From an uncultured candidate division Zixibacteria bacterium (GTDB taxonomy: Bacteria > Zixibacteria > MSB-5A5 > GN15 > FEB-12), in NCBI GenBank assembly GCA_963806185.1, contig CAWDXE010000005.1:227737-291736 (forward strand): a stretch of 64,000 nt of DNA, written 5' to 3'. A program made the translations under genes and the position numbers. Below are positions 52,225-62,705 of this stretch, piece by piece. Every line of letters starts with the position of its first letter. The stretch's first letter is position 1. A model generated the notes under the pieces. It saw only the letters and a list, made by a program, of their open reading frames with translations, had not been told where the DNA came from and searched no databases.

Positions 52225-54670
52225 ATGTCTTTGGAACGACAGAAAATCGAAACCGTCTATCTCGAAGAGGAGATGAAGTCGTCCTACCTCGATTACTCCA
52301 TGTCGGTCATCACCAACCGCGCGCTGCCGGATATTCGCGACGGCATGAAGCCGTCGAACCGGCGCATCATGGTCGCGATGAACGACCTGAATCTTCAGCC
52401 GGGACGGCCACATCGTAAGTGCGCGAAGATCTGCGGCGATACGTCGGGTAACTACCACCCGCACGGCGAGCAGGTGGTCTACCCGACGCTCGTGCGCATG
52501 GCGCAGGATTTCAACATGCGGTATCCGCTGGTCGACGGCCAGGGGAACTTCGGCAGCATCGACGGCGACGACGCCGCGGCGATGCGATACACCGAAGCGC
52601 GCCTCACGCCGATCGCGGTGGAAATGCTCGCCGATCTCGATAAAGAGACGGTCGACTTCATGGCGAACTACGACGGCACGCTGCAGGAGCCGAGAGTGCT
52701 TGCCGGGAAAATTCCCGAATCTGCTCTGCAACGGATCCTCGGGTATCGCGGTCGGTATGGCGACCAATATTCCGCCGCACAATCTGAATGAAATCGGCAA
52801 AGCGATCCTGAAAGTGATCGACACACCCGACTGCACCAACGACGATCTGATTCGGCTGGTGCCGGGGCCGGATTTTCCGACCGGCGGCATTATCAACGGT
52901 CGCGAAGGGATTCGCGAAGCGTACCGCACGGGCAAGGGGCACATTCAGGTTCGCGCCAAAGCGGTGGTCGAGCACATGCGCAACGGCAAGGAAGCGATTG
53001 TCGTCAACGAAATCCCCTATCAGGTGAACAAGTCGAATCTGCTGGAGAAGATCGCCGACCTGGTGCGCGACAAGAAGATCGAGGGTATCACGCGATCTTG
53101 CGCGACGAATCCGACCGCGACGGGATGCGGATTGTCATCGAACTGCAAGCGCGACGTACCAGACCGATATCGTGCTCAACCAGCTCTTCCAGCACACGAC
53201 GATGCAGACGACCTTCTCGGTGATCATGCTCGGTCTGGACAACGGCGTGCCGAAACTCGCTGACGCTGAAGCAGCTGATCGAGGCGTTTGTCGAGCACCG
53301 TCATGAAGTAGTGACGCGCCGGACGCAGTACGATCTGCGCAAGGCCGAAGAGCGGGCGCACATTCTCGAAGGGTACAAGATCGCGCTGGACAATATCGAC
53401 GCGGTGATCGCGCTGATCAGGAAGTCGAAAGATGTTCCGACCGCGCGCGAAGGGTTGATGAAGCAGTTTCAAGCTGTCCGAGATTCAGGCCAACGCCATT
53501 CTCGAGATGCGGCTGCAGCGCCTGACCGGGCTGGAACGTCAGAAGATCGAAGACGAATACCGGGAGCTGCTCAAGAAGATTGAGGAGTATCGGGCGATCC
53601 TGGCGTCGCGCGCAGCTGCGCATGCAGATCATCAAGGACGAAACGCTGGAACTGATGAAGAAGTACGGCGACGAGCGCCGGACGCAGATTCAGGACGCGG
53701 CGGAGGAACTGACGGTCGAGGATCTGATCGCCGAAGAGGAGATGGTGATCACGATTTCGCACGCCGGATATGTCAAGCGGCTCGCCGATTTCGCAGTACC
53801 GCAAGCAGCAGCGGGGCGGGCGAGGGCGTGATCGGCATCGAAACGAAGGAAGATGATTTCGCCGAGCACCTGTTCATTGCGTCGACGCACGACTACATCC
53901 TGTTCTTCTCGATCGCGCGGCCGATGCTACTGGGTGAAGGTGCACGAGATCCCGGTCGGCGGCAAGATGGCCAAGGGGAAACCGATCGTCAATATGGTGC
54001 TCAGATGGGCAAAGAGGAGACCGATTGCGTCGTTCTGCCGCGTGCGCGAGTTCTCGGCCGAGAAATTCATCGTGATGGCGACCCGCAACGGAATGATCAA
54101 GAAGACCACGCTCGACGCGTTCGCCAACCCGCGCAAGGCGGGCGTGAACGCGATGGATATCTCCGACAAGGATGACGCGCTGATCGGCGCGGGGGTTACC
54201 GACGGCACGTTTGAAATCGTGTTGGCGACCCGCCAGGGGATGGCGATTCGCTTCCCCGAGGAAAAAGTGCGCGCCATGGGCCGCACTGCCTACGGCGTGC
54301 AGCGGGATCGATCTGGCCGAGGGCGACTATTGCATCGGCATGGTGGTCGTGAAGCGCGACTCGTCGCTGCTGGTCGTGACCGAGAACGGGTACGGCAAGC
54401 GGACATCGATCGATGATTACCGGATCACCAACCGTGGCGGCAAGGGGGTCATCAACGTGAAGACCTCGGAGCGCAACGGCGAGGTGGTGACGATCAAGGA
54501 AGTGCTCGATCAGGACGAGTTGATTCTGATCACGAAGAAGGGCATCGCCAACCGTCAGGCGGTGAAGCCAGATCAAGGTGATCGGCCGCAACACGCAGGG
54601 TGTGCGGTTGATTAACCTGAGCGACGGCGACCTGGTGACGGATGTCGCGCGGGTGGTGTCGGAAGAGTAG
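52225..54670 (+). CDS. gyrA: DNA gyrase subunit A (many apparent frameshifts)
   Basis: [47 protein letters not shown] and GPDFPTG motifs; GyrA-box-like QQRGGRG; pinwheel repeats (MGR, RGGKG); stop at 54670. Confidence 0.93.
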
Positions 54671-55679: not shown

Positions 55680-56158
55680 GTAGGGCGGAACTCCCTTTCA
55701 TTTATCAAGATGGCCGCCGTTCGAGCACACACTATCGCGATCACCAGAGGCCGAGATCACCGCAAAAGAGTTCCGCCCTACAACGTGATTTGTCACGTGC
55801 TGTGAAGTAGGGCGGAACTCCCTTGCGTTTATCATGATAGCGGCCGTTCGGCACACACTATCGCGATCACCAGAGGCCGTGATCGCCGCAAAAGAGTTCC
55901 GCCCTACGGCGAGATATGTCACGTGTAGTGAAGAAGGGCGGAACTCCCTTGCGTTTATCATGATAGCGGCCGTTCGGCACACACTATCGCGATCACCAGA
56001 GGCCGTGATCGCCGCAAAAGAGTTCCGCCCTACGGCGAGATATGTCACGTGTAGTGAAGAGGGGCGGAACTCCAGCGCGTCTCCAAAACACTCAGCCCTC
56101 ATCAGGCATGGTGCCGATTAGCAAATTCTCCGAAAATCGCAAGAGAGTTCCGCCCTAC
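55680..56158. repeat. Tandem array of four REPIN-like units (period 126-127 bp)
   Basis: Units 55680-55781, 55807-55907, 55933-56033 and 56059-56158, each bounded by (GTA)GGGCGGAACTC...GAGTTCCGCCCTAC. Confidence 0.92.
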
Positions 56159-56225
56159 TTCATTCTGACTGACGGCAGGTGTCAGTGCCTGGCCATAATA
56201 TACTCCGAAGAGGAGAATCAAAGTC

Positions 56226-56738
56226 ATGTCCAAGTTGCTTCGATATTATGCGCCGGGCCACACCTACTTTCTTACTGTCGTTACCCACAAGCGACAACCG
56301 ATACTGTTGAGTTACCCAAAACTGTTACTGTGGGCGTGGGCCGCAGTTCGTCCCGGTCTCCCTCATACTTTGCACGCGTGGGTTCTCATGCCTGACCATT
56401 TTCATATTATCATATCTTCACCCAATCACTATCCGGATGTCCTCGTGAAGCGATTCAAGCTGAAATACCGGTCACTCTATCAGTCACGGACCGGCTACTC
56501 GGATCGACTCTGGCAGCACAGATTCTGGGATCATATCATTCGGAATGAAGAAGACTTGCAGAGGCGCTTCGATTATATCCACTACAACCCGGTGAAGCAC
56601 GGGTTATCCGGAAAGACAGTCGCCTGGAAATGGTCATCGTTTGGAGATTTTGTGAGACGCGGGCTTTACTCATCAGACTGGGGAGATTCTGTCCAGGAAG
56701 GGTCGGATGGCGACTATGGGGATGCGAATGACCAGTAG
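56226..56738 (+). mobile_element. REP-associated tyrosine transposase (RAYT; HUH/Y1, IS200-like)
   Basis: TYFLTVVT, VLMPDHFH (HUH), LWQHRFWDHIIR, YIHYNPVKHG (catalytic Tyr) and WKWSSF motifs; flanked on both sides by GTAG REPs. Confidence 0.93.
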
Positions 56739-56963
56739 GGCGGAACTCTCTTTCGACATGTCAAGGAATCAGCTTCACCGAGCACGGCTTGCAGTCTGCG
56801 GAGCACGTTGTGACCGCAAATGAGTTCCGCCCTACGTCAACGTGTCCCGTGCTGCGGCGGTGTCTGGGCGGAACTCTCTTTCGACATGTCAAGGAATCTA
56901 CTTCACCGAGCGCGGCTTGTAGTCTGCGGAGCACGTTGTAACCGCAAGCGAGTTCCGCCCTAC
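56735..56963. repeat. Two REPIN-like units downstream of the RAYT
   Basis: 56735-56835 and 56863-56963 have the same termini but a different interior; the first supplies the RAYT TAG stop. Confidence 0.9.
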
Positions 56964-56972
56964 GTCAACATA

Positions 56973-57140
56973 CAGGTCGAAACCGCAGTGGTTTCGACCT
57001 ACAAAGAGAACCGAAAGATCGTCACGGCTCGAAACGAGCCTCGCGATGACGCGTAGGTAAGTTCTGTGGACACTGAGATCCTGAATCATAAGAATGATTC
57101 AGGATGACGAGATGGGCGGAATGATTCAGGATGACGAGAT
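56973..57140. repeat. Further palindromic repeats
   Basis: AGGTCGAAACC...GGTTTCGACCTAC; CACGGCTCGAA.CGAGCCTCGC.ATGAC (also near 51939); GAGATCCTGAA...TTCAGGATGAC (also 51991); 22-bp direct repeat 57092-57113/57119-57140. Confidence 0.75.
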
Positions 57141-57180: not shown

Positions 57181-58194
57181 CTACGTCCGCGCCTTGATCT
57201 CTTTAATCAACTCGTCCGTGAATTCGGTCGTCGAGCAGGTGCCGCCGAGATCCTTTGTCAAATGATGGCCTATCGCCAGATTTAACACCATCGCCTTCCA
57301 GATCCGGTCGGCCGCTTCGTTCTCACCAAGATGACGAAGCATTAAGAGCGCGGAGAAGATCACCGCTGTCGGATTCGCCAGGTTCTTCCCTGCGATGTCC
57401 GGCGCCGAACCGTGCACCGCCTCGAAGACGGCATACTCATCCCCAAGATTCGCACCCGGCACCACACCCAGTCCGCCCACCAGACCGGCGGCAAGATCGG
57501 AAACGATATCACCAAACAGATTGCCGAGCAAAAGCATGTCGAAACGGGTCGGGTCCATCACCAACTGCATGCAGAGGGCGTCGACTATCCGATCCTCGGC
57601 CTTGATGTCCGGAAAGTCCTTCGCCACCTCCTCGAACGACCTCAGAAACAGACCGTCGGAAATCTTCATGATATTCGCCTTGTGCACGAGCGTGATCTTC
57701 TTGCGGCCATGTTTGCGGGCGTACTCAAACGCCCACCGGGCGATACGCAGCGAGGCTTTCTCGGTCACGACCTTGATCGCGTTGACCACGCCGGGAGAAA
57801 TGACACTCTCGATGCCGGTGTAGAGGTCCTCGGTGTTCTCGCGAACGATGATCAGGTCGACCTTGTCGAATCGGGTCGGCACACCGCCGATTGACTTCAC
57901 CGGTCGCAGGTTGGCGTACAAATCCAACTTCTGGCGCAGGGTGACGTTGGCCGACTTGAACCCCTTCCCCACCAGTGTGGTGAGCGGCCCTTTGAGCGCC
58001 ACCTTGTTTTGTTTGACCGAATCCATCAGGGCGTCGGGAACGGAAACGCCCTCTTTCTCTATTGAGGCCATGCCGGCCTCGTGGCGGTCCCATTGAATAT
58101 CAACTCCGGCGGCCTCGATGACCCGGACGGCCGCCTCGGTAACTTCCGGGCCAATCCCGTCGCCGGGAATGAGTGTCACGCGATGTTTTGCCAT
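57181..58194 (-). CDS. Isocitrate/isopropylmalate dehydrogenase family protein (NAD-IDH-like)
   Basis: LIPGDGIGPEV, ALKGPLTT, RENTEDLY, VHKANIMK, NLFGDIVSD and FEAVHGSAPDIAG motifs. Confidence 0.92.
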   Translation of the reverse strand: MAKHRVTLIPGDGIGPEVTEAAVRVIEAAGVDIQWDRHEAGMASIEKEGVSVPDALMDSVKQNKVALKGPLTTLVGKGFKSANVTLRQKLDLYANLRPVKSIGGVPTRFDKVDLIIVRENTEDLYTGIESVISPGVVNAIKVVTEKASLRIARWAFEYARKHGRKKITLVHKANIMKISDGLFLRSFEEVAKDFPDIKAEDRIVDALCMQLVMDPTRFDMLLLGNLFGDIVSDLAAGLVGGLGVVPGANLGDEYAVFEAVHGSAPDIAGKNLANPTAVIFSALLMLRHLGENEAADRIWKAMVLNLAIGHHLTKDLGGTCSTTEFTDELIKEIKART

Positions 58195-58360
58195 ATGTCC
58201 ACTGTCAATTCGTTGTGCGGAGACGCCGACCATTGTGGGCGGGTACCCTCGGAAAATCCGCCGGAAGATACCGGCGGGGCATCGGTCTGTCAATGCGAAT
58301 ACCGCAATTGCGGTCCGGATCAATCCACCATGCGAGGGGGGGACCGCAGGCCAAATTATC

Positions 58361-58389
58361 TTGACAGTTTCTCGAAAGCCCGGTATACT
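58361..58389 (+). promoter_or_regulatory. Near-consensus sigma-70 promoter
   Basis: TTGACA-17 bp-TATACT. Confidence 0.75.
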
Positions 58390-58395
58390 CTCCGC

Positions 58396-58600
58396 AGCTT
58401 TAGAGCCCCCTAAATAACTTTAGCACACGAGTTTAATCAAGGGTTAGGGCAGAGACTGTTTGACCGCAGATGTTCTGTGGCCCGAGCAATTGAAATCCCC
58501 GAACGCAGCTTGAGTTGCGCTCGCCAAAAACGCCCCCTCCTCACCATGCACAGTATGGCGGAAAGATTCGTGTGCGTCTTTCCGGGGAGGGGGTTTTTCA
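58396..58600 (+). ncRNA. Candidate ~200-nt structured RNA (sRNA or attenuator leader)
   Basis: Lies between the strong promoter and a GC-rich stem with a U-tract; several hairpins and a potential 8-bp long-range pairing. Confidence 0.5.
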
Positions 58601-58711
58601 TAGAATTGGCTTCATCTCGTTCCCGTTGCCGCATAAGGCCAATTTATCATTTGCCCCCGAGTCTATGAGCGGGATATATTTCTGCGTCGGCTATAACTGC
58701 CGGGAGGAAAT

Positions 58712-59599
58712 ATGGACTACAGCGGAATCGTAGAACGGTCATTCCGATTGGCGTGGCGGTACAAGTCACTCTGGATACTGGGTTTGTTCGCCGGGTCGGG
58801 GACAACCGGTTTTTCGTACGGCGATCAACGGCTCAATTTTGCCAAAGGCGGCGCCCCCATGGATCCGAGCGTAATCTTCTCGGAAATCGCTCCGTTTCTG
58901 GGCGTGCTGCTCTGGTTGGGGCTAATATTGCTGGTGGCGTATTGCCTGGCCAAGCCGGCGCTGATCGACGGGGTCAATCGGCTTACCCGCGGCGGCGTGT
59001 ATACCCTGGCTGATTCGTTTTCAACCGGCGTCTCCATGTTCTTCCGATTTCTCGGAATCACCATCCTCGGCGGCATACTGATGGTGGCGGCAATTCTTCT
59101 GATGGTCATGATATTCGTCGCCCTGTTCGCCATCCACCCGATCATCGGAATTGTCATGCTGCTTCCCGGCATTCCGGCATTTTTCGCCTTGATCTGGGTG
59201 TATCTATCGGTCTTCCAGTTGGCGGAGCGGGCGATCGTCGTACGCAACACGAACATCGCCGATGCCATCAGCGAGGGATGGCAGTTGTTCCGAAACCATC
59301 TGGCGGAATCGGGAATTATTGTCCTCATTATTATCGGACTGAGTATTGGCCTGGCCATTGTCTCGGGAATCATCATGTTCATCGTTGGTGCGCCAATCGC
59401 CGCCGCTATTCTGGCACTTGACCTGCCTCTGTTGCCGGCGCTGGTCGCCGGGTTTCTTATGGCACTGCCGGTGTCGATCATCATCGGCGGCTTCGTAGGG
59501 GCGGCGATGACGACGTTGTACACATTGTTCTACTTTGAGTTGGTTGAACCGGGCGGCGTGCACTCCGATCTGCTTCCGGAATCAACACCGCCGGTTTAA
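58712..59599 (+). CDS. Integral membrane protein
   Basis: About six TM segments; AWRYKSLWILGLFAG N-terminus; GGGAGG SD. Confidence 0.8.
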   Translation: MDYSGIVERSFRLAWRYKSLWILGLFAGSGTTGFSYGDQRLNFAKGGAPMDPSVIFSEIAPFLGVLLWLGLILLVAYCLAKPALIDGVNRLTRGGVYTLADSFSTGVSMFFRFLGITILGGILMVAAILLMVMIFVALFAIHPIIGIVMLLPGIPAFFALIWVYLSVFQLAERAIVVRNTNIADAISEGWQLFRNHLAESGIIVLIIIGLSIGLAIVSGIIMFIVGAPIAAAILALDLPLLPALVAGFLMALPVSIIIGGFVGAAMTTLYTLFYFELVEPGGVHSDLLPESTPPV

Positions 59600-60692: not shown

Positions 60693-61745
60693 TCAGCTTT
60701 CGATGAGTACGGTTTCGGACGAGAATCCGGGGCCGAGTGCCGAGATCAGTCCCAGCTCTCCCTTCTTCCTGTCATTTGATTCCAGAAATTTCGCGAGGAC
60801 GAAGAGTACCGTTACCGACGACATATTACCGTAGTCACGCAACACACGGCAACTGATCTCGAATTCGCCGTTCCGTCGGCCGAGCGCCTCCTGATACGCC
60901 TGTATCACTTTCGTGCCGCCGGGGTGGAACAGGTAATGATCGATGTCATCAAGCGTCAGTTGATGTCCGCGCAGGAATTCGCTCAAGTCCTCGCGTGAAT
61001 GTTCTGCCACGATATCAGGAATCCGCTGGGCGAAGACCACCTGCAGCCCGTGCGCGACAACATTCCATCCCATGACATCGAGCGAATCGGGATACAGCCG
61101 ACTGCATGTGTCGACAACGCGGACACCTTCCTGCGCGACATCGTCGCCGGTGATCAGCACGGCCGCGGCCCCTTCACCAAAGAGGGCGGTCGCCACCAGA
61201 TTGCTCTTGGAAAAATCATTGGGCAGGAAGGTCAGCCCGCACAGCTCGGCGGCCACCAGCAGGATTCGTTGCTTCGGATGACCGAGCGCATGGTGGTAAG
61301 CGTGGGAGAGTCCGGCAACGCCGCCGGCACAGCCCAACCCCCAGATCGGTGTGCGGCGCACATTGTGGCGGAGGCCCAGGACGTTGATCAGGCGGGCATC
61401 GATCGACGGTGTGGCTAAGCCGGTCGTGTTGACGAACATGATATAGTCAATCTGATCAGGGCGAGTGCCGGTTCGCGCAAAAAGCGACCGGCAGGCGTCG
61501 GCGGCCAGTGTGGTGGCGTTTTCGATATAGGCGGTGTTGCGCTCTTCAAGTGTATGAGGACTCACCAGCCAGTCCAGGGGCTTTGAGAAGTAGCGGTGGT
61601 CGATTCCGGAATTGGCGAAGATGCCGAGCAACCGGTCCACGTCGCGCACCTTGGCGCCGAAATGGCGGCGGGCAAACTCGCGCCCCTGCTCCTGATCAAT
61701 CTTGTGCGGCGGGACGGTCGTTTCGACATGGGCAATATACGGCAC
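60693..61745 (-). CDS. Type III polyketide synthase (chalcone-synthase-like)
   Basis: GLGCAGG (catalytic Cys), ALFGEG, HPGG (His), YGNMSS (Asn) and LGPGF motifs. Confidence 0.92.
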   Translation of the reverse strand: MPYIAHVETTVPPHKIDQEQGREFARRHFGAKVRDVDRLLGIFANSGIDHRYFSKPLDWLVSPHTLEERNTAYIENATTLAADACRSLFARTGTRPDQIDYIMFVNTTGLATPSIDARLINVLGLRHNVRRTPIWGLGCAGGVAGLSHAYHHALGHPKQRILLVAAELCGLTFLPNDFSKSNLVATALFGEGAAAVLITGDDVAQEGVRVVDTCSRLYPDSLDVMGWNVVAHGLQVVFAQRIPDIVAEHSREDLSEFLRGHQLTLDDIDHYLFHPGGTKVIQAYQEALGRRNGEFEISCRVLRDYGNMSSVTVLFVLAKFLESNDRKKGELGLISALGPGFSSETVLIES

Positions 61746-61957: not shown

Positions 61958-62320
61958 CTAGCGGCGAGTCCGCGAGTTGCCGCGGCGGAAGCCGTAGCGG
62001 GTGTTCTTGCGCCACGGGGCAGCGTTTTTCGAACGGCTGGCGGTCGGGCGGAAGGAGCCCTTGGTCTGACCGGTATTGCCACGCCACACGGACGGATTGG
62101 CCTTCTTGATGCTCAGGTCGGAAGCTTTGTACCGAACGGCATAGGCGGTGCGGCCAAGCTGACGAGCTACCCACGAGGTCTCGTTGATGCGATAGTACTT
62201 GCGCAGGAAGGCGATTTCTTTCGAGCTCCACGGACGGCCACCATTGGCGCGACGGGTGGTGCGAGTGGTGCGGCGCGAAGCAGCGCGACGATAAGTGTTA
62301 CGGTTTTTGCGAATAGCCAT
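61958..62320 (-). CDS. Small very basic protein with a Myb/SANT-like HTH core
   Basis: AAAGGAG SD; Arg-rich tails around PWSSKEIAFLRKYY...VARQLGRTAYAVRYKA..L. Confidence 0.75.
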   Translation of the reverse strand: MAIRKNRNTYRRAASRRTTRTTRRANGGRPWSSKEIAFLRKYYRINETSWVARQLGRTAYAVRYKASDLSIKKANPSVWRGNTGQTKGSFRPTASRSKNAAPWRKNTRYGFRRGNSRTRR

Positions 62321-62705
62321 TGTCAACTCCTTTGTAGAGCAGTGAACGTATGCGATCCGAAACCTGGCTTAGCTCGGCCGCGTTTTTTATCAGTGTTTCT
62401 AATCAATGCATCGGACGTTCTTTAAGATTCTTTACCCCAATCGTTTACATTTTTCGTTCCACACGCGGGCTTGAAACGGCGCGTAGAGACTAGTTTGCCA
62501 CTTCGACGATTACGTGTGCGGTGATCAATAATTAAACATGGACCGGAAGATTGACTTCTCGATCGCAAGCCTGTATGTGGTGCAACACATTGCCGTTCCA
62601 TCACTTACTGAATACATGCCCGCCCCCCTCGACCGTCGTGACGGCAGTCTCACGCCACTTGCCCCACAACGTGTCCAGGGTTAGATTGTATGCGGAAGAC
62701 CAGCC

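Follow-up and report, generated by a model that had tools for sequence, protein, structure and literature searches.

The RNA locus and its predicted fold

The window, by which we mean the whole 64,000-nt stretch of DNA analysed here, comes from an uncultured Zixibacteria bacterium. Between a dehydrogenase gene on the minus strand and a putative membrane protein gene on the plus strand it holds a near-consensus promoter followed by a predicted small RNA (sRNA). The features of the locus are as follows:

57181-58194, minus strand: isocitrate/isopropylmalate dehydrogenase gene (idh, PF00180), the divergent neighbour, found beside 10 of 17 family loci
58361-58389, plus strand: sigma-70-type promoter TTGACA-17-TATACT (-35 box TTGACA 58361-58366, -10 box TATACT 58384-58389), 11 of 12 consensus positions, 17-nt spacer
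58396-58598, plus strand: predicted sRNA of ~203 nt, ends inferred rather than mapped
58402-58411, plus strand: 5' C-run AGAGCCCCCT, which can pair over 10 bp with the 3' G-run in an alternative fold
58423-58430, plus strand: 5' strand of P1, GCACACGA, a long-range helix or pseudoknot
58446-58501, plus strand: P2, a long irregular hairpin, variable in sequence among homologues, capped by CCGCAGA (58464-58470) and TCTGTGG (58474-58480)
58504-58519, plus strand: P3 hairpin, CGCAGC (58504-58509) with GTTGCG (58514-58519), variable among homologues
58533-58540, plus strand: 5' strand of P4, C-run CCCCCTCC, anti-Shine-Dalgarno-like, with CCCCCTC invariant in all five close homologues
58544-58558, plus strand: P5 hairpin, CCATGC (58544-58549) with GTATGG (58553-58558), six of six pairs kept in all five
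58559-58584, plus strand: P6 hairpin, CGGAAAGA (58559-58566) with TCTTTCCG (58577-58584), whose loop bears the family motif GUGUGC
58568-58575, plus strand: 3' strand of P1, TCGTGTGC, in the P6 loop, complementary to GCACACGA
58586-58598, plus strand: 3' G-run GGAGGGGG (58586-58593, 3' strand of P4), then five T to 58598; predicted terminator
58712-59599, plus strand: DUF7544-like membrane protein gene downstream (E 3e-5, below the cut-off), unlinked to the RNA in relatives

The 5' end of the RNA was set 7 nt past the -10 box and the 3' end at the U-tract. A preliminary description of this DNA had pointed to the promoter, the hairpins, the closing stem with its U-tract and the 8-bp complement between the 5' and 3' parts of the RNA, and all of these are present. 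It had also placed the next coding sequence about 110 nt on, and the distance from the end of the sRNA to the start of the DUF7544-like gene is 113 nt. Between 57000 and 60000 a scan gave five promoter-like sites, compared with 1.7 +/- 1.2 in shuffled sequence. Both neighbours have promoter-like sites of their own, idh at 58293-58265 and the DUF7544-like gene at 58651-58680. The closest relatives of the dehydrogenase are mostly from Candidatus Zixiibacteriota. Four DNA sequencing runs gave no cover over 58226-58795, which has no bearing on expression. In a search with a covariance model of the 3' domain the RNA is single copy in its own genome, which is 82% complete. Among the 89 units of that genome made up of a promoter and 165 nt without a long ORF it ranks second by folding z, in a rough ranking (12 shuffles per unit) whose first place is taken by a repeat array. 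Two further structured non-coding stretches behind promoters, with low folding z and no Rfam match, were noticed in the genome (G000:C5:44333 and C5:126545, both minus strand; L277, L278).

The 221-nt stretch has a folding z of -2.94, and one of 200 shuffles was as stable. The 3' stem is absent from the list of a simple terminator scan because it closes a three-way junction and not a small loop. The complement between TCGTGTGC and GCACACGA extends to 12 bp with two G-U pairs. The P1 8-mer arose by chance in 63 of 20,000 shuffles of the first 140 nt, and any 8-bp inverted repeat more than 100 nt apart in 121 of 2,000 shuffled 205-mers; on the window sequence alone the match is modestly unlikely. 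The pairing is convincing because homologues keep it. The fold of the window RNA has a predicted energy of -72.6 kcal/mol when P1 is forced and -74.9 kcal/mol when P4 is forced; the corresponding differences in the other four close homologues are 1.6, 2.0, 3.4 and 10.7 kcal/mol, so that two nested folds lie within 3.5 kcal/mol in four of the five. Since the two energies are near-equal in most close homologues, both helices were kept. According to these predicted folds P1 and P4 could be present together, in a large pseudoknot with the strands in the order P1a, P4a, P1b, P4b, or could alternate. Of the pseudoknot suggested in the preliminary description, the conserved long-range helix with covariation stands, while pseudoknot and alternative fold are not distinguished.

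Relative to its homologues, the window RNA lacks one base around the G-run. At 52225-54615 (plus strand) a gene that we take from its translation to be GyrA-like is spread over at least six overlapping ORFs with changing frames. Assembly indel errors are the probable cause, and caution is therefore needed with single-base claims in the window. The window also carries an IS200-like/RAYT-type transposase gene (56226-56738; PF01797, E 1e-5) with arrays of short inverted repeats on both sides (55690-57130); one 14-nt core of these repeats is present 11 times in the window and 23 times in the whole genome. On the minus strand there are a type III polyketide synthase gene with chalcone synthase domains (60693-61745) and a very Arg/Lys-rich ORF of 122 aa with no Pfam match (61958-62326).

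Homologues, covariation and the extent of the family

A BLAST-like DNA search, which the preliminary description had put forward, found no homologue among 41 relatives; it returned chance pieces of 16-43 nt only, and those inspected were coding DNA. The first homologue (L053, identical with L084) was spotted upstream of dehydrogenase orthologues. Searching 160 genomes of the order for the pattern yielded four matches, the window among them, and a covariance model run over 150 genomes gave five strong matches, namely the window and four of the five genomes of another genus, g23, the latter at E 1e-30 or better. The same five were found with a 3'-domain model in 108 family genomes. Across the three covariance models (R1, R2, R3) the sole member added beyond the training sets was L096, the one match that lay outside them, and the family gained nothing else from the remaining genomes searched. 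Weak matches (R1, E 7e-5 to 0.03; R2, E 5e-4 to 0.05; R3, E 0.1 to 0.5) were rejected as ordinary terminators or coding DNA. R1 run without filters on 22 idh loci gave nothing below E 0.05, and a pattern scan of metagenomes gave five matches, each without the rest of the motif. In all four g23 homologues the divergent neighbour is again the isocitrate/isopropylmalate dehydrogenase gene, and in the fifth g23 genome (G099) there is no room for an RNA beside idh. In six relatives (L059, L061, L062, L073, L074 and L076) idh is divergent to a gene that is presumably selD-like, again with no room for an RNA; this gene has an in-frame TGA near its start in the relatives (selenocysteine likely), and the genome of the window has a tRNA-Sec.

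The close homologues are ~178-188 nt long. Common to all five are the TTGACA-17 promoter and GCACAC near the 5' end, followed in order by a long and then a short variable hairpin, CCCCCTC, P5, P6 with GUGUGC, the G-run and the U-tract. The long-range helix occurs as GCACACGA/UCGUGUGC, as GCACACGG/CCGUGUGC (in three genomes) and as GCACACAG/CUGUGUGC. The 8-bp pairing, which the preliminary description had singled out as the place to look for covariation, keeps all eight pairs in all five sequences, with compensatory changes at two pairs and the other six invariant. P5 has one compensatory and one G-U change across the close homologues. In a model of 27 pairs with P1 as a pseudoknot 97% of 135 cells are paired, compared with 33-58% in slid registers, and changes on both sides are seen at five pairs, which none of 500 shuffles reaches; for P1 and P5 alone the figure is six of 500 shuffles. 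These counts have as their basis five sequences, four of them of one genus, in an alignment fitted by the model to P1 and P5. The G-U changes, read on the plus strand, fit an RNA transcribed from that strand. A conserved AUG/GUG in P5 stands in three different frames among the five homologues and therefore codes for nothing; a small protein or leader peptide gene was rejected for want of a conserved frame, in line with the earlier remark that no credible ORF lies inside the element.

More divergent elements were sought by position. In one genome (G022) the gene that converges on the 3' end of the RNA encodes a short-chain dehydrogenase (SDR). This gene was matched in 33 of 108 genomes, 30 SDR loci were analysed, and 13 of the 30 have a promoter-like site aimed at the end of the SDR gene. 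Twelve of the 13 were counted, one of which is L084 again; L238 was left out, having a TTGCCC-type site and looking like another gene's leader. Together with L079, from the dehydrogenase set, the SDR loci make up a divergent set of 12 elements from eight further genera. They are roughly 170-280 nt long with several hairpins, and most have a G-run and a hairpin resembling a terminator. GUGUGC is present in seven of the 12 (shuffle mean 0.85; 0 of 1,000 shuffles), and GAGGGGG, the 3' G-run, in six of the 12 (0.29 in shuffles; 0 of 1,000). As L079 was first noticed through its GCACAC/GTGTGC, the motif test was repeated without it, with GUGUGC then in six of 11 (0 of 1,000 shuffles). GCACAC is not enriched, being present in three of the 12 (66 of 1,000 shuffles). 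In L079, L247, L252 and L254 the motif sits in a hairpin loop of which the stem sequence has changed. The 5' C-run of the window RNA is found in most divergent relatives and is absent from the four close homologues. The full-length model R1 detects none of the 12, and when 150 genomes were searched with a model built on the P6 region nothing was added to the family. Support for the putative homology of the 12 divergent elements thus consists of two short motifs and a shared position, and only the genera g1, g23 and g42 have the long-range helix in the form seen in the window. The idh orthologue beside L079 (G046:C70:93157-94164) has one in-frame TAG.

In total the family comprises 17 loci (17 genomes) in 10 of 47 genera, 10 of them divergent to the dehydrogenase. 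A TTGAC-16/18-TAnnnT promoter precedes all 17, a pattern that was partly a selection criterion for the divergent loci. The 17 of 30 SDR loci without a promoter-like site were left out of the count, as were idh loci whose promoter leads straight into a gene and L060, which is structured, runs into selD and does not match the promoter pattern. At L060 (1165-1364, minus strand) a multihairpin stretch of ~200 nt lies between a promoter-like site divergent to idh and the start of the selD-like gene, and may be either a folded leader or a member of the family that has diverged very far.

The gene that follows the RNA is DUF7544-like in the window, a histidine kinase gene in L083 and L096, and a convergent BMC-domain, HPr kinase or SDR gene in 14 of the 17 loci, 11 of these 14 having been picked through the end of the SDR gene. 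A downstream gene that varies, and that points towards the RNA in 14 of 17 loci, makes an attenuator or riboswitch improbable and indicates a stand-alone sRNA. An attenuator, in which P1 and the 5' C-run would oppose the 3' stem as an antiterminator and so regulate the gene that follows, would draw on the near-equal folds of the window RNA, which may instead coexist as a pseudoknot, and on the co-oriented downstream gene in three of the five close homologues (window, L083, L096). However, these co-oriented genes are unrelated, and the DUF7544-like gene has its own promoter-like site. DUF7544 orthologues occur in 48 of 60 family genomes, those in the loci examined have no such RNA upstream, and no paired GCACACG/CGTGTGC motifs were found upstream of them in 29 loci. 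We therefore consider the switchable attenuator of the preliminary description highly improbable. That the locus is a real stand-alone non-coding RNA gene is, in our judgement, very probable, and it belongs to a new family of Zixibacteria whose predicted folded RNA, of ~200 nt, would likely act in trans.

Known RNA classes and the 6S question

A search against Rfam (Rfam 15) gave nothing at gathering level in the window, and the three matches returned on 601 nt, at E 2-6, are irrelevant. In 15 related loci there was no match at the element; two matches at E 0.16 are a partial viral element inside L249 and one elsewhere. The preliminary description could not place the RNA among tmRNA, RNase P, SRP or known riboswitches, and the Rfam search likewise finds none of these here; tmRNA, RNase P and SRP RNA were rejected, each being found elsewhere in the genome with no model match at this locus. 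With no Rfam match, homologues that show covariation in P1 and no conserved frame, the earlier suggestion of a novel sRNA is supported.

The 6S RNA deserves separate consideration. The window RNA is unmatched by the covariance models RF00013 and 6S-Flavo (which we take to be RF01685), and RF00013 gave no score even at E 10 on 601 nt. RF00013 had no match in 61 family and 41 phylum genomes, a silence that is weak because the model matches only five of 14 control genomes. In length the window RNA (predicted ~203 nt, ends inferred) is close to 6S (about 180-200 nt). It is not predicted to form the 6S rod: in predicted folds its axis has 20 pairs and it has five hairpins, versus an axis of 55 pairs for E. 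coli ssrS, and the longest axis over the 17 loci has 19-39 pairs with three to eight hairpins. In E. coli the gene order is zapA-ssrS-fau. In the genome of the window zapA and rny are neighbours on a different contig, 101 nt apart, and the gap is 28-168 nt in the 16 of 31 loci that were measured and short by eye in the other 15. The zapA-rny gap, the 6S site of other bacteria, is empty across the class and too short for 6S. The direct succession of zapA and rny is itself class-wide (G000:C7:650376-650526 and L189-L218), the short gap often holding one hairpin. PF01812 (fau/ygfA) was not found in the 82%-complete genome of the window.

A genuine 6S RNA, strongly diverged and rod-shaped in vivo, would fit the length of ~200 nt and the P1 state, in which there is a closing stem together with a long hairpin and a single-stranded A-rich stretch. 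There is also no other 6S candidate among the promoter-anchored units of the genome; the most 6S-like of these (G000:C4:246042) was rejected because it extends into the 5' end of a protein gene and is unmatched in Rfam. Against this reading stand the RF00013 result and the failed rod comparison, the closing arm of only ~22 nt in the close homologues, and a position that adjoins neither zapA nor rny. We regard it as very unlikely.

Proposed function and likeness to known systems

We tentatively favour, with somewhat less than even confidence, a protein-binding RNA, most likely associated with RNA polymerase, in the role of 6S, Ms1 or CoRP. The protein partner is guessed from the size of the RNA, the strength of its promoter, its position and the lack of a detectable 6S RNA. 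Under this proposal sigma-70 RNA polymerase would start near 58396, and the 3' three-way junction (P4-P5-P6) with the U-tract would end transcription. Next, the GUGUGC loop of P6 would pair with GCACAC in the 5' part. It would do so with the junction still in place, as a pseudoknot, or the RNA would refold to a closed form with several branches; the product would be compact, with its ends protected. Such an RNA would likely exert its effect in trans through a bound protein, possibly RNA polymerase. The single copy, the near-consensus promoter and the conserved position with drifting sequence argue for a polymerase role. Against it are the predicted fold, which is multibranched with no promoter-like rod, the lack of GUGUGC in five of the 12 divergent elements, and the patchy spread (10 of 47 genera), since a housekeeping polymerase-binding RNA should be expected everywhere. 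We speculate further that the RNA might be a fourth structural class of polymerase-binding RNA, a pseudoknotted, multibranched molecule of ~200 nt that would replace 6S in Zixibacteria and in which the GUGUGC loop would switch between terminator and closed folds; this more specific model we consider unlikely.

Alternatively, the RNA could be an Hfq-independent base-pairing sRNA in which the GUGUGC loop, the C-run or both serve as mRNA seeds, hidden or exposed by the internal pairings P1 and P4. In favour of this, the looped GUGUGC is constant although both the stem beneath it and the strand it pairs with internally vary. The cores of the two helices, too, are invariant and show no covariation, a hint at a second partner; Hfq was found in none of 40 family genomes, and the C-run is anti-Shine-Dalgarno-like. 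However, four segments compared with 2,803 crude start regions did no better than five shuffled seeds each, in a weak test on one genome. The loop is locked in a helix of 10-12 bp (-17 to -19 kcal/mol) in the close homologues, and here too the five divergent elements without the motif count against the idea. We take base pairing as the main rival, possible and somewhat less likely than the polymerase-associated role.

A short conserved loop motif on a variable multihairpin scaffold, together with a strong promoter, would likewise suit a decoy or scaffold for an RNA-binding protein or nuclease other than polymerase, with GUGUGC as the binding site. A decoy of the CsrB/RsmZ type was rejected, as there are two GGA in the first 230 nt of the window RNA and 2-7 in relatives, with no loop repeats, and csrA sits in a flagellar gene cluster. 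A Y RNA was also rejected, with TROVE/Ro60 not found in the 82%-complete genome and no Rfam match. These points make a decoy or scaffold of this kind distinctly unlikely. At L263 (G000:C7:628700) csrA lies between hook-associated-like genes, which we take to be flagellar.

In the literature that we searched no description of an sRNA or 6S RNA from Zixibacteria/Zixiibacteriota was found, and subscription journals or supplementary motif catalogues could hold the family. The RNA family described here is structured, is not represented in Rfam and comes from an uncultured phylum; its architecture, a long-range helix beside a terminator-like junction, is unmatched among known families. It is a concrete and easily synthesised candidate, in a phylum with no detectable 6S, for testing the proposal on polymerase-binding RNAs made in PMC11077062. 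If it is an ordinary base-pairing sRNA it is still a new family, of moderate interest.

Several known systems resemble the window RNA in part. HDV-like ribozymes have an outer pseudoknot and a catalytic strand, J4/2. The strand order P1a-P4a-hairpin-P1b-P4b resembles their outer pseudoknot, but the linkers, the inner hairpin and the J4/2 catalytic strand misfit by inspection and there is no Rfam match. In the ZMP/ZTP riboswitch a 3' hairpin loop is paired to a 5' strand in a pseudoknot. The window RNA shares this long-range pairing of a loop with a 5' strand beside a terminator-like stem, but it has no Rfam match and no constant co-oriented downstream gene. RsaE/RoxS and FsrA are C-rich, Hfq-independent sRNAs of Firmicutes that direct a C-run against the Shine-Dalgarno sequence. 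The C-run of the window RNA could pair in the same way, and no Hfq was found in the lineage; unlike in those sRNAs, the C-run pairs with the RNA's own G-run, no target stands above background and there is no Rfam match.

With 6S RNA the window RNA shares a length of about 180-200 nt, a stand-alone, single-copy gene and 5' and 3' parts that can pair. It differs in having no covariance model match, in being branched with a conserved long-range helix where 6S forms a centrally bubbled rod, and in its place outside the zapA/rny/fau neighbourhood with a terminator-like 3' junction of its own. The primary sequence of 6S RNA is poorly conserved, and some polymerase-binding RNAs are proposed to have escaped detection through their differing appearance (PMC11077062). 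The same source describes CoRP RNA in Corynebacterium and proposes one abundant polymerase-binding RNA per species (PMC11077062), and homologues of Ms1 were found by gene neighbourhood where sequence search had failed (PMC9130861). Ms1, of Actinobacteria, and CoRP are, like the window RNA, lineage-specific structured RNAs with homologues too divergent for sequence search, and they occur in groups that have no detectable 6S (PMC9130861, PMC11077062). Ms1 is ~220-300 nt long with a central bubble and CoRP ~516 nt, and polymerase binding has been shown for both, whereas here it is a prediction. The host of the window RNA belongs to another phylum, Zixiibacteriota, and there is no sequence, covariance model or Rfam match to either. 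Ms1 and CoRP offer a precedent for polymerase-binding RNAs that are not 6S and that are conserved in synteny while diverging in sequence.
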